Counted from the first letter of the whole stretch, positions 16,179-25,262 are shown. The stretch: DNA of 63,385 bases, filler included, from Reclinomonas americana ATCC 50394 (GCA_048213135.1; 7 parts of 4 records of this genome joined end to end with filler, not necessarily neighbours in it); one strand, 5' to 3'. The notes: generated by a model from the sequence alone, not told the origin. Numbers and translations are program-made.

Positions 16179-18903
16179 CTACAGCTCCATTGTGAAAGCA
16201 CCGAGCGTCTCTCGCATGTCGGACATTTCTTTCCTGGCCTCTTCAGCGGATGGTCGATCGAAAAAGAGCGACATGCATCTATCGTACGCATGAACATACC
16301 ACTTCGCATCTGGACGGGTTCTCTCACGAGCACGCAACTGCACCCCCAGTTGCAACATACTGCGCGCCACGTCAGTCCGCCATTCACCAGCTGAACGATC
16401 AGCTTCAGCAACAGCATCCACCGTGTCCAGCGAACGCTCCCACGTGCGAGCTTGTCCGATCACGTAGTGCGCATCGCGTCCCGTCAGCAGCTGCAGCACG
16501 ATCAATCCCAATGCATACAAGTCCATAGAGAGGCGAACTTGACATGACTGGAGGTAGAGAGGGTCAGTGTAGAACTGCGAACCCGAGCGCGTCATGGTGT
16601 GCCTGTGAGTCTGTTGGACACCGAGTCAGCACATTGCACAGTCGTCACCGAACACCGCGCCGAACACCATCCACACGTACCTCGTTCTTGTCAAAAACGC
16701 GCGCTATGCCGAAATCGCCAAGTCGTGGCTCACAGCGACTGTCAAGCAAAATGTTGGATGGTTTTAGATCGCGGTGCACCACGCCGTTCTGCGATGTTTA
16801 CGGTTGCTCAGACAACACAAGCAGCAAGAGTAAATATTGCACTCATGAGTGCGGAAGCACAACGGGCATCCGGGTGCAACAATGCACAGGGTCGACGACG
16901 CGCATCTCACTGGATGAATGATCAGCAGCGAACCTGATGCAAAAAGCACACTCCTTCAGCAACACCGAGTCCGATCTGGACTCGCTCCACCACAGTCAGC
17001 GGCGACATACTCGATTGCCGGTTCATCAGCCGTACGTCCAAGTCGTGCCCACTGCGAGTCGTAAGGAATAAGCGATGCAGTGCAGAGAATACTCCAGCTC
17101 TCACTCACGCCGTGCACTCGCTGGCACCAACACTATCCCCTGCGTGCTGTAGTGCGGTGCTTCTCTCCCTCCTGTCTCTCCTCAACACATTTCCGCACCG
17201 CATTGCTCGATACACCAAACAGCGCTCCAGTTGGCCGCCCTTCGCCAACGACGCATACCCAAGCAGTGGTACAAGGCGACGATGATGCAGCCGTCCGATG
17301 GTGTTCATCTACTCCGAACTGACATGAGAAGATGGGCAGGCAAGAGACAGGAACAGGAGGGGATAAAGAGAGCGCGAATCCGAATTGATAGACAGAGAGA
17401 CACACCTCCGCATCATAAGACTCATTTGCCCACGGCGCTGTACTGTCCAATCGCTTGATGGCCACGTCTTCATCGTCGAGCCAACAAATATACACTTCGC
17501 CCTGACCGCCCTCACCGGCCTTGTATCGTTGATTAAATGTCTCTGTGGCGCGTAGAACATCGGCCCATTTATACTCGCGTAGCCGAGTGGGCTTCACTGT
17601 TGTGCCTGTATGAACGGACGTGAACGACTCAAAAGTAACCACGAGCAGCAGATGCAAGTCTGACTCTCACCGCGCAAGCATTCCAACTCGCGTAAGGCCT
17701 CAGCAGATCGTTGTTGCTCGACGAGAAGTGCTTGCTCGGCTGTCTGGAGTGCTTCAACTTGTTGATCCAACTGTTGCTGGAGTGTCGCCTTTGTTGCCTG
17801 CTCCTCCTCAAGTGCTTGATGCGCCAGTGCACAGGCTTGTTGAAGCTGAGCGTGGTCTTGTTGCAACGCAAGCACAGTGCATTCGTGCTCGAGCTGCTGA
17901 CGCTCAAATTGTCGCCGCTGCTGTTCTCGCTCCATCAGCGCTTCGTCAACGTCGCGTTGCAGTCGTTCAATAATCGAATCCTTTTCGGCGAGCTGACGCG
18001 CCAGCGCAGAGGAATCGGGAGTTGTCTGAGGCACGCGGTTGAGACTGTGAGCAGAAACATCGTGTGGCGGCTGGAAAGCTGTTAGTCTAGTGAGAGGTGG
18101 TGCCACTGCAGGAGCTGCTGCGCAAGTGTGTGCAAAGTCTGACCGTCAGCAGGAGACCTACGTGAGGCACAGACAACATACTCACATGGCGGTATATACG
18201 GTGGAGACTGTGGCTGTTGAGCAGCAGCAGCAGCGGCGGCGGCGGCGGCAGCCGGAGGTGCTGATGATTGCGCAGCGAGGCTATCGAGCAACTCGGCCAC
18301 ATGCCGCTTCCCTTGGTTGCGCGCCAACTGAGCCGCCGTCATGCCCGCCTCGTTGACCTTGGGAATGAGGTCGGGGTAGCGAGTAGCAATGAGTCGCACA
18401 ATCGCCTTGTGTCCACACGATGCAGCGCAATGCAGCGCGCTATGCCGGGGTGCCCCCACGTATCTGGAGGAGGACATCGCCCGCACCATCTTCGGAGAGC
18501 ACCGCCGCTCATCGGCCAGCAGCCACTCCACCACCTCCAGATGCCCACGCTCCGCAGCCATCATCAGCGGCGTGTAACCATCGTCGTCAACCATCTTCGC
18601 CATTCGTTCTCCCACCCCACTCTCCTCCCACAAGAATTCCAACATTGCGAGATGGCCACGAGCAGCTGCATGGTGAAACGCCGTTCCGCCATTGTCATCC
18701 ATTTCAACCTTCTTGAACAGTACGTTTGCGCCCTCGCTCGCTACGAGCCTGCGCAGAGCGGGCAGGTCGCCTTCCATCGCCATTTCGCATGCTAATTGCC
18801 TGAGTGGGGGGCACTGCGTGAGCGAGCGTGGTTCGTTGCGACAGAGCACGCAGGACTGGCAACTCTCTGACGAATACCTGTCGTCGCTGGCCGTTGCACC
18901 CAT
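16179..18903 (-). CDS. N-myristoylated ankyrin-repeat / coiled-coil / IRAK-Pelle(RLK)-like protein kinase
   Basis: Starts MGATAS. Ankyrin repeats ([37 protein letters not shown]), then an E/Q-rich coiled-coil exon. Kinase exons: [15 protein letters not shown]...GEGGQGEVY...VAIKRL...[12 protein letters not shown]...[32 protein letters not shown]...LGDFGIAR...[10 protein letters not shown]...[16 protein letters not shown]...RP. Catalytic motifs intact. Confidence 0.9.
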
Positions 18904-18972
18904 TCCGTCGTTCGTTGTGTGAGCAGAGGTGTCCTATTCTTGTCCCGCGTGCACAACCGTCATACATCGACA
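18904..18972. promoter_or_regulatory. 69-bp spacer between divergent start codons; probable bidirectional promoter/UTR region
   Basis: ATG (-) at 18903 and ATG (+) at 18973. Promoter function is inferred from the geometry only. Confidence 0.55.
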
Positions 18973-24900: not shown

Positions 24901-25262
24901 TGGGCAGTGTGCTGGCGGTGGACGGTTTCAAGAAGGGCGGCTTCATGCACAACACGTGGCAGGCTCGCCGACTGGAACTCTCCGTCGCCACTCGCCAAGT
25001 GCAATACTTTGAGGCCGGTAAGCAGACGCCCAACGGCGGCTTCTCGCTCGACAACACCACATTTGAGGTGGCACCGGCGCCGGTGACGCACCAAGGCGTG
25101 CCACTCGCCGTCATCACCGTCACCCCGTCGTCCGCCACCACCGGACGCAAGCAATACGTGATCGGCATTCCCACGGCCCGCGAGCAGGCCACCAAGTGGA
25201 CCAGGGCCATGAAACGTGCCGGCGCAGTGATGCAACAAGACGACGATGACGATCGGGAGTGA
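18973..25262 (+). CDS. NLR-like STAND NTPase: NACHT - pentapeptide repeats - ~14 WD40 repeats - C-terminal PH domain
   Basis: Exon1 18973-19293 (MLRGGGCASSK + polyPro), exon2 19356-19481, exon3 from 20048. Walker A VVAGWSGGGKS, Walker B LVLVLDGFDE, sensor-1 VVSVRREY, PIML, TRSRLYDIF, winged helix FVHKSFLEYSAA. Pentapeptide repeats (LRGADLRDALLHRTDLRDADL) and WD40 repeats lie in exon 22345-24572. The last exon from 24647 has SFAGCQLEGASGMS and a PH motif (KKGG...WQARR...QYF...PNG...KWTRAM). Confidence 0.9.
19978..19989. other. Synthetic contig linker TTAATTAATTAA within N runs (also at 35578, 49518, 55642, 58986, 61497)
   Basis: Identical 12-mer with stops in all six frames, centred in N blocks. 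Confidence 0.97.

Follow-up and report, generated by a model that had tools for sequence, protein, structure and literature searches.

A kinase gene and a NACHT-pentapeptide-WD40 gene on opposite sides of an apparent record boundary

The DNA analyzed here is a stretch of 63,385 nt from Reclinomonas americana ATCC 50394 (GCA_048213135.1), referred to throughout as the window. Between positions 16179 and 25262 it holds, on the minus strand, a gene for an ankyrin/coiled-coil protein kinase and, on the plus strand, two short exons that start 69 bp away from the kinase start codon, followed beyond a 100-nt block by the exons of a NACHT-pentapeptide-WD40 protein (Table 1). An earlier note on this DNA had joined all plus-strand exons into a single NLR gene and proposed that this gene forms a head-to-head pair with the kinase. 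The sequence does not support that linkage, since the kinase and the two short exons lie on one record, the NACHT exons lie on the next, and what stands between them is a synthetic spacer. The picture of an effector-less NLR arranged head-to-head with a kinase arose because the DNA was read across a record boundary. On the first record, the kinase gene is divergently paired with a low-complexity 5′ gene fragment without a recognizable domain, and nothing shows that the NLR and the kinase act together or adjoin.

Table 1. Positions of the kinase gene, the plus-strand fragment, the NACHT-WD40 gene, the spacers and other genes of the window. GC3, G+C content at third codon positions; ORF, open reading frame.
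Feature	Position	Strand	Basis or remark
Complete 7-exon gene for a 697-amino-acid ankyrin/coiled-coil/RLK-Pelle-IRAK-like Ser/Thr kinase	16179..18903	-	spliced frame, Pfam, PDB matches
Kinase gene exons	18178-18903, 17671-18070, 17406-17605, 17199-17308, 16934-17051, 16681-16788, 16179-16610	-	spliced model
Kinase exon 1: M-G-A-T-A-S start, ankyrin repeats, Ala/Gln/Pro-rich linker	18178..18903	-	translation, Pfam
Kinase exon 2: coiled-coil segment of ~125 residues	17671..18070	-	crude heptad count
Kinase domain, five exons: G-loop, catalytic motifs, DPLY activation-segment end, LLTG helix	16179..17605	-	translation, Pfam, PDB matches
69-bp spacer between divergent ATGs	18904..18972	.	sequence and both-strand translation
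5′ fragment of divergently oriented gene, two exons, 149 codons	18973..19481	+	translation, splice sites
Fragment exon 1, 107 codons, poly-Pro/Ser low complexity, GC3 0.42	18973-19293	+	translation
Fragment exon 2, 42 codons, GC3 0.71, phase-0 end at GTGAGG donor	19356-19481	+	translation
Purine-rich intron-like tail of record 1, tandem repeats (87 nt x2, 28 nt x2)	19482..19933	+	runs to record end, 452 nt
Six identical 100-nt spacers	19934-20033, 35534-35633, 49474-49573, 55598-55697, 58942-59041, 61453-61552	.	N44-TTAATTAATTAA-N44
5′-truncated gene, 1345 codons: NACHT-like NTPase, pentapeptide repeats, 14 WD40 blades, possible PH-like tail	20048..25262	+	spliced model
NACHT-WD40 exons, first five of ten	20048-20302, 20374-20466, 20520-20813, 20876-21022, 21622-21696	+	spliced model
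NACHT-WD40 exons, last five of ten	21804-21932, 21996-22133, 22202-22264, 22345-24572, 24647-25262	+	spliced model
NACHT-like STAND NTPase core, 4 exons	20048..21022	+	Walker A in exon A, Walker B (DGFDE) in exon B, sensor-1-like VVSVRR in exon C
~11 pentapeptide repeats	22507..22680	+	PF00805, E 8.8e-16
14 WD40 blades	22687..24525	+	PF00400, E 5.5e-64; blades counted by eye on segmented translation
Possible PH-like domain at C-terminus (lead only)	24900..25217	+	ESM Atlas feature search
Aspartyl protease C-terminus	12041-12547	-	ORF family match
Iron-containing alcohol dehydrogenase, two ORF pieces	45788-48338	-	ORF family match
Tubulin-tyrosine-ligase family exon	51621-52229	-	ORF family match
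NIF/CTD-type phosphatase exon	56154-56696	-	ORF family match

The block at 19934-20033 reads exactly N44-TTAATTAATTAA-N44. Its 12-nt core occurs six times in the window and in none of 100 dinucleotide-preserving shuffles, and the N44 flanks are identical at all six copies. The core equals its own reverse complement and carries TAA in each frame, with stops in all six frames. The window has 27 runs of N, 12 of which come from the spacers as their 44-nt halves; the remaining 15 vary irregularly from 20 to 908 nt, in the manner of real scaffold gaps of estimated length. The pieces between the spacers measure, in order, 19933, 15500, 13840, 6024, 3244, 2411 and 1833 nt, a strictly descending series that represents one ordering out of 5040. 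Together with 600 nt of spacer, the seven pieces add up to exactly 63385 nt, the full length of the window, which therefore starts and stops at piece boundaries. Most of the twelve ends at which a piece meets a spacer consist of low-complexity or repeat sequence, including both ends at 19934-20033, and such sequence is typically where assemblies break.

Because the identical spacer recurs six times between pieces of descending size, we read 19934-20033 as a record boundary and not as the sequencing gap that it had been taken for. In all probability, judging from this layout, the window represents the tail of an assembly whose records were sorted by size, seven of them glued end to end as wholes, and the region of interest spans the first joint, between the pieces here called record 1 and record 2. 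What can be held against this reading is that it derives from the form of the spacer and the order of the pieces, the original records themselves being unseen. A separator with a TTAATTAATTAA core that joins contigs without creating chimeric genes is described in the excerpted text of the aweMAGs preprint (10.1101/2023.02.08.527609). The linker of Tettelin et al. 2005, in the form in which that excerpt quotes it, has the same core, N flanks and between-contig placement; the spacer of the window differs from the form given there in its layout of N44 + 12 nt + N44, 100 nt in all, and in having no extra start-site flanks. Synthetic spacers between size-ranked records imply that adjacency across a spacer carries no positional information. 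Gene models or neighborhood arguments that cross such blocks are thus unsupported and their two sides should be treated as unlinked; the present value of the case is mainly cautionary, in that these 100-nt blocks are record separators.

The kinase gene lies entirely within record 1. Its seven exons are separated by six GT-AG introns of 65-147 nt and join into 697 codons with no internal stop, beginning at the minus-strand ATG at 18903. Exon 1 matches the Pfam family Ank_2 with an E-value of 1.4e-22, and the G-loop, the VAIK lysine, HRD and DFG all fall within the single spliced frame, making up a complete catalytic core; the 36-residue catalytic-loop exon alone scores 41.7 bits against Pkinase (E 1.2e-10), over the cut-off of 31.7. 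The description of this protein as an ankyrin/coiled-coil kinase with intact motifs is borne out, and with all catalytic residues present the enzyme looks active. In exon 2, hydrophobic residues occupy 22 of 36 heptad a/d positions as opposed to 26 of 90 elsewhere, by a crude count of our own, and the residues QELRKAD constitute 76% of the exon, which holds no glycine. The start of the protein, M-G-A-T-A-S, conforms to MGxxxS, which we take to be an N-myristoylation-type consensus, and the kinase is probably N-myristoylated.

Classification of the kinase was addressed by searching single exons, one from the N-lobe and one from the C-lobe, against PDB sequences. Among 47 distinct sequences matched by the N-lobe exon at E<=10, 44 were plant RLK/RLCK or IRAK1/IRAK4 chains, the remaining three being a dipeptidase, RNase L and CpsY. 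Each of the ten N-lobe matches with E<0.01 was a plant RLK, with 6cth at the head (E 6.5e-4), and the Y..D...AT..F segment upstream of the G-loop aligned with the RLK juxtamembrane region. The C-lobe exon yielded 20 matches, of which 18 were kinases, all of plant RLK/RLCK type by name and including RKS1, PBL2 and BIK1, with E<0.01 for the best match only (0.0035). PDB entry 6j5t, which contains RKS1 and PBL2, was among the matches of both exons. Plant RLK/RLCK and IRAK chains thus predominate even though PDB is rich in other human kinases. Individual E-values are weak, 6.5e-4 at best, because only single exons were searched; two independent exons nonetheless match almost exclusively one kinase family, and the IRAK/Pelle/RLCK-style assignment made in the earlier note is therefore supported at the level of best similarity. 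By that measure, and at weak significance, the kinase appears closest to plant RLK/RLCK and IRAK kinases.

The similarity to RLK/Pelle/IRAK kinases, such as BIK1, PBL2, RKS1 and IRAK1/IRAK4, thus resides in the N-lobe and C-lobe exons, whereas the accessory parts differ. IRAK and Pelle possess a death domain, and RLKs a signal peptide, a transmembrane segment and an ectodomain; the present protein has ankyrin repeats and a coiled coil instead, and a Pfam search of its N-terminal part found no death domain or other accessory family. Its layout would best fit a cytoplasmic, RLCK-like kinase. Ankyrin repeats N-terminal to the kinase domain are also known from TKL kinases of the ILK type, the animal ILK being a pseudokinase. 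The present protein has the same order of ankyrin repeats followed by a TKL-like kinase domain, but it keeps VAIK, HRD and DFG, and a long coiled coil separates its repeats from its kinase domain. When the ankyrin exon was compared with longer proteins, 79 of 6646 candidates matched at E<=1e-8, and none of these 79 carries a kinase family. From what is known of these families, the protein may act as a membrane-anchored signaling kinase that is recruited or dimerized through its ankyrin and coiled-coil parts.

The ten exons of the NACHT-WD40 gene on record 2 likewise join without an internal stop, ending in a stop codon at 25260-25262. Record 2 opens with ccccctccccgcag, and the first exon follows a splice acceptor, cag at 20045-20047, that lies only 14 nt into the record, so that the 5′ end of the gene is missing. 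This exon (exon A, 20048-20302) begins V-M-V-V-A-G-W-S-G-G-G-K-S, and its first residue falls on position 2 of NACHT in Pfam, which again calls for an upstream exon. Exon A contains the Walker A motif GWSGGGKS and the following exon (exon B, 20374-20466) the Walker B motif LVLVLDGFDEC, both of which align at matching positions of the Pfam NACHT model and of a hidden Markov model (HMM) that we built from the NACHT/NPHP3_N regions of six proteins of fungal type.

No single exon attains the NACHT threshold because the NTPase is split over short exons. Residues 1-30 of exon A align with positions 2-31 of the Pfam model at 14.2 bits (E 0.04), and residues 2-23 of exon B with positions 78-99 at 15.2 bits (E 0.02), NACHT being the best family for that exon. 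The two are therefore colinear on the model, and their scores from single-exon searches give a rough sum of 29.4 bits, compared with a gathering threshold of 26.7 for PF05729; exons C and D, searched singly, have no Pfam NACHT match. The six-protein HMM scores 13.2 bits against the spliced N-terminus, as compared with a maximum of 2.3 bits in 200 shuffles, and its alignment covers Walker A, Walker B and the stretch of sensor 1 in colinear order. A phmmer comparison of the spliced N-terminus with 200 proteins returned very weak matches around Walker B, in five NACHT/NPHP3_N proteins only. PADLOC and NCBIfam searches of the exons of the NACHT arm gave nothing relevant, and PDB sequence searches with exons A and C gave nothing meaningful. 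The NTPase is accepted as a NACHT-like STAND NTPase and as a possible member of Pfam NACHT proper.

Downstream of the NTPase, repeats of the sensing type are present in the form of pentapeptide and WD40 units, and the 14 blades would suffice for two seven-bladed propellers. The architecture proposed in the earlier note, that of a STAND NACHT-pentapeptide-WD40 protein, accordingly stands as regards the NTPase and both repeat families (Table 1), but the inclusion of the two short exons of record 1 is not supported by the sequence. The further contention that this NLR has an N-terminus without an effector is equally unsupported, as it depends on reading across a spacer that is closed in all six frames and that separates two records. 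Behind the propellers, a feature that the earlier note did not mention may be present: PH-domain clusters were retrieved for the last 130 residues in ESM Atlas with a best score of 0.92, a range in which 4-10% of shuffles also reach 0.9. Two single-sequence AlphaFold2 models of this tail have several strands and, after them, a helix at the C-terminus, at mean pLDDT values of only 40.3 and 43.6, and the last exon matches no Pfam family. We regard a PH-like tail of about 110 residues, conceivably a membrane-binding or output part, as a lead only; if true, it would be something that STAND proteins do not usually have.

Family knowledge suggests that such a protein would work as a ligand-gated, oligomerizing switch, in which the WD40 and pentapeptide parts may sense a ligand and NTP exchange may drive assembly, with the output domain lying either in the missing 5′ part or in the PH-like tail. 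Fungal NACHT-WD40 proteins of the HET-E/HNWD family and NWD2, in the portions of the literature consulted, share the succession of a NACHT-type NTPase and WD40 repeats and a Walker B of the D-G/A-x-D-E-C type (PMC1805685, PMC3321046, PMC4986451). The present protein differs from them in the pentapeptide block between NTPase arm and WD40 repeats, in its 14 blades and in its possible PH-like tail; no motif shared with a neighboring gene was found, and the similarity is too low for database matches.

Some exon boundaries of both genes deserve caution. The donors at 21933 (GTTGGT) and 22265 (GTTGCG) of the NACHT-WD40 gene are weak, and the two boundaries that they define are tentative. These two GTT donors, along with those at 18177 (GTTGTC) and 16933 (GTTCGC) of the kinase gene, are needed to keep the frame; either the organism tolerates them or two boundaries in each gene are slightly wrong. 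Repeats also populate the noncoding sequence: the 599-nt intron of the NACHT-WD40 gene at 21023-21621 consists of tandem repeats, rich in pyrimidine and 85-114 nt long, and record 1 contains purine-rich repeats of 87 and 28 nt in its tail at 19571-19921 (plus strand), with no blastn similarity between the two sets. The assembly probably breaks in introns that are filled with repeats.

The plus-strand fragment on record 1 starts at an ATG at 18973 (not 18974), which together with the kinase ATG confirms the 69-bp spacing of divergent start codons that had been reported. Its two exons are separated by a 62-nt GT-AG intron. Exon 1 has the lowest GC3 of the region, an outlier against the 0.54-0.85 of all other exons, and its coding status is doubtful because CT-rich DNA yields open frames easily; exon 2 matches no Pfam family even at E<=10. 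Two alternative frames are available, namely an unspliced ORF of 170 codons ending at 19483 and a read-through of the exon 2 donor up to a stop at 19638-19640. The predicted start of the fragment, M-L-R-G-G-G-C, has no Gly2. Lipidation-type starts had been attributed to both divergent genes, and this attribution is retained for the kinase alone.

Relatives of the two proteins proved scarce. We found no close relative of either gene in a collection of 5.8 billion proteins or among representatives of 15 billion proteins, and no near-identical or orthologous protein for the NACHT arm, the WD40 exon or the ankyrin exon in the collections searched. The WD40 exon matched 721 of 7999 scored longer proteins at E<=1e-3, and the 120 matches listed are generic WD40 proteins with 22-29% identity. 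None of 31 longer candidates for NACHT exon C matched at E<=10. A HMMER search of the same exon against 1.84 billion representatives gave one match, to a frog protein (E 6.6e-5), which was set aside as uninformative as it involves repeated units and no NACHT family. A scan of metagenome contigs led from 88 pattern matches to one weak relative with 25% identity. Within the window, tblastn with 11 exon translations returned self-matches only and thus no paralog, and none of the 61 other ORFs of at least 150 codons contains a NACHT, WD40, Ank or kinase family. Both genes are real, and both proteins are rather isolated members of known families. The signaling repertoire of a GC-rich, intron-rich eukaryote is thereby extended by a NACHT-pentapeptide-WD40 architecture and by an RLK/IRAK-like kinase with ankyrin repeats and a coiled coil.

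Whether the fragment at 18973-19481 nevertheless belongs to the NACHT-WD40 gene is a matter of weighing. We favor, with a probability of roughly 0.65, that they are different genes that merely seem joined as both records happen to break within plus-strand introns; the remainder goes to true adjacency, in a split that we infer rather than measure. Several observations weigh against the favored reading. The flanks fit in strand, which is plus on either side, and in phase: a good GTGAGG donor follows exon 2 at phase 0, and at the start of record 2 a pyrimidine tract and cag lead into an exon that is likewise in phase 0 and belongs to a gene that, with exon A at position 2 of the NACHT model, needs an exon upstream. 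The end of exon 2 (...LLDAFVARKGSMATAK) seems to resemble the short helix and linker preceding the P-loop strand in many NACHT proteins, and its GC3 of 0.71 is nearer to that of the NACHT exons (0.71-0.85) than to that of the kinase exons (0.54-0.66), in a comparison that involves only 42 codons. The assembly tail is also sparse, with only seven records below 20 kb; the assembly may thus comprise few records, which raises the prior that small records adjacent in size are neighbors. It is on these grounds a credible, though not the favored, alternative that the records are true neighbors, that the assembly broke in a long, repeat-rich intron, for which the tandem repeats at the end of record 1 could be responsible, and that exons 1 and 2 are the 5′ end of the NACHT-WD40 gene. 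The two genes would then constitute a genuine divergent pair with start codons 69 bp apart, which need not be a functional pair. Set against true adjacency are the junction itself, a synthetic spacer in an order given by size and not by map position, and the intron that it would demand, no shorter than 466 nt and with an unbridged gap in addition, when 15 of the 16 other modeled introns measure 53-147 nt and the remaining one 599 nt, and when gaps as long as 908 nt have been bridged inside the records of this assembly. The G+C content of the records differs as well (0.554 for record 1, at 1-19933, and 0.610 for record 2, at 20034-35533), and joints that match by chance in strand, intronic position and phase should occur, by a rough estimate, at about 1 in 100 junctions, which is not rare in a large scan that favors striking gene models. 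Both readings presume that the fragment continues beyond its donor, and it is unlikely that the fragment is instead complete, either as a small two-exon gene or as a non-coding, CT-rich exon 1 with a fortuitous ATG at 18973. Were the donor at 19482 unused, the frame would stay open for 52 more codons up to the stop at 19638-19640, for a total of 201 codons, but the part so added overlaps an 87-nt tandem repeat and has a GC3 of 0.58. A non-coding exon 1 would agree with its outlying GC3 and with its pyrimidine-rich composition, which resembles that of the intron at 21023-21621 and makes stop codons rare; on the other hand, exon 2 has the look of ordinary protein sequence, a good GT-AG intron of 62 nt leads into it, and no ATG occurs in it before the final few codons.

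The most far-reaching proposal is that a sensor NLR is co-regulated with an RLK/Pelle-like kinase, its effector in trans, and that the two constitute a membrane-associated module for innate immunity or allorecognition. In its concrete form, a unicellular eukaryote would possess a NACHT-pentapeptide-WD40-PH sensor whose N-terminus is only disordered and proline-rich, and this sensor would share a 69-bp promoter with a divergently transcribed, myristoylated ankyrin/coiled-coil kinase acting in trans as its output. By analogy this has some appeal: the kinase resembles the RLCK/IRAK type, with RKS1 and PBL2 of the ZAR1 resistosome among its PDB matches, it has a myristoylation-type start, the C-terminus of the NACHT protein may be PH-like and bind membranes, and a divergent pair 69 bp apart would have a common promoter region. 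The proposal depends, however, on true adjacency of the records in the first place, and in a compact genome divergent genes may normally lie this close together. A lipidation signal is lacking in the plus-strand gene, and no recurrence of the pairing was found, with no paralogs in the window and no relatives found in the protein and metagenome collections searched. The fragment and the kinase moreover have no common motif. A local alignment of the 149-amino-acid fragment with the 697-amino-acid kinase scores 57, a value reached by 58 of 300 shuffles; taken by parts, the first 40 residues are equalled by 19 of 300 shuffles and exon 2 by 187 of 300, and such likeness as exists is confined to low-complexity Ala/Pro sequence. 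We consider both the module and its concrete form very unlikely. The alignment also removes the analogy that had been drawn with nwd2/het-S, in which the NLR carries at its N-terminus a motif with a homolog in the product of the adjacent gene; no such homology was found here. The NLR-kinase partnerships ZAR1-RKS1-PBL2, Prf-Pto and NOD2-RIPK2 are defined by demonstrated binding or genetics, and the head-to-head pairs of plants are NLR-NLR and not NLR-kinase. The likeness to these partnerships would consist in the combination of a STAND sensor with an RLCK/IRAK-like kinase; the difference is that here the linkage of the genes is itself unproven. If adjacency were true, the locus would offer a testable coupling of an NLR with an IRAK/RLCK-type kinase outside plants and animals, and would bear on whether such coupling is of ancient or convergent origin.

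The remaining genes of the window are ordinary eukaryotic content unrelated to NLRs or kinases. The window has no tRNA genes. Six of the 61 other ORFs carry other families, such as aspartyl protease, iron-containing alcohol dehydrogenase, tubulin-tyrosine ligase and NIF (Table 1). The source DNA is GC-rich in its coding parts, with a GC3 of ~0.7-0.85 and many short GT-AG introns, and the source organism seems to be unannotated and poorly sampled.

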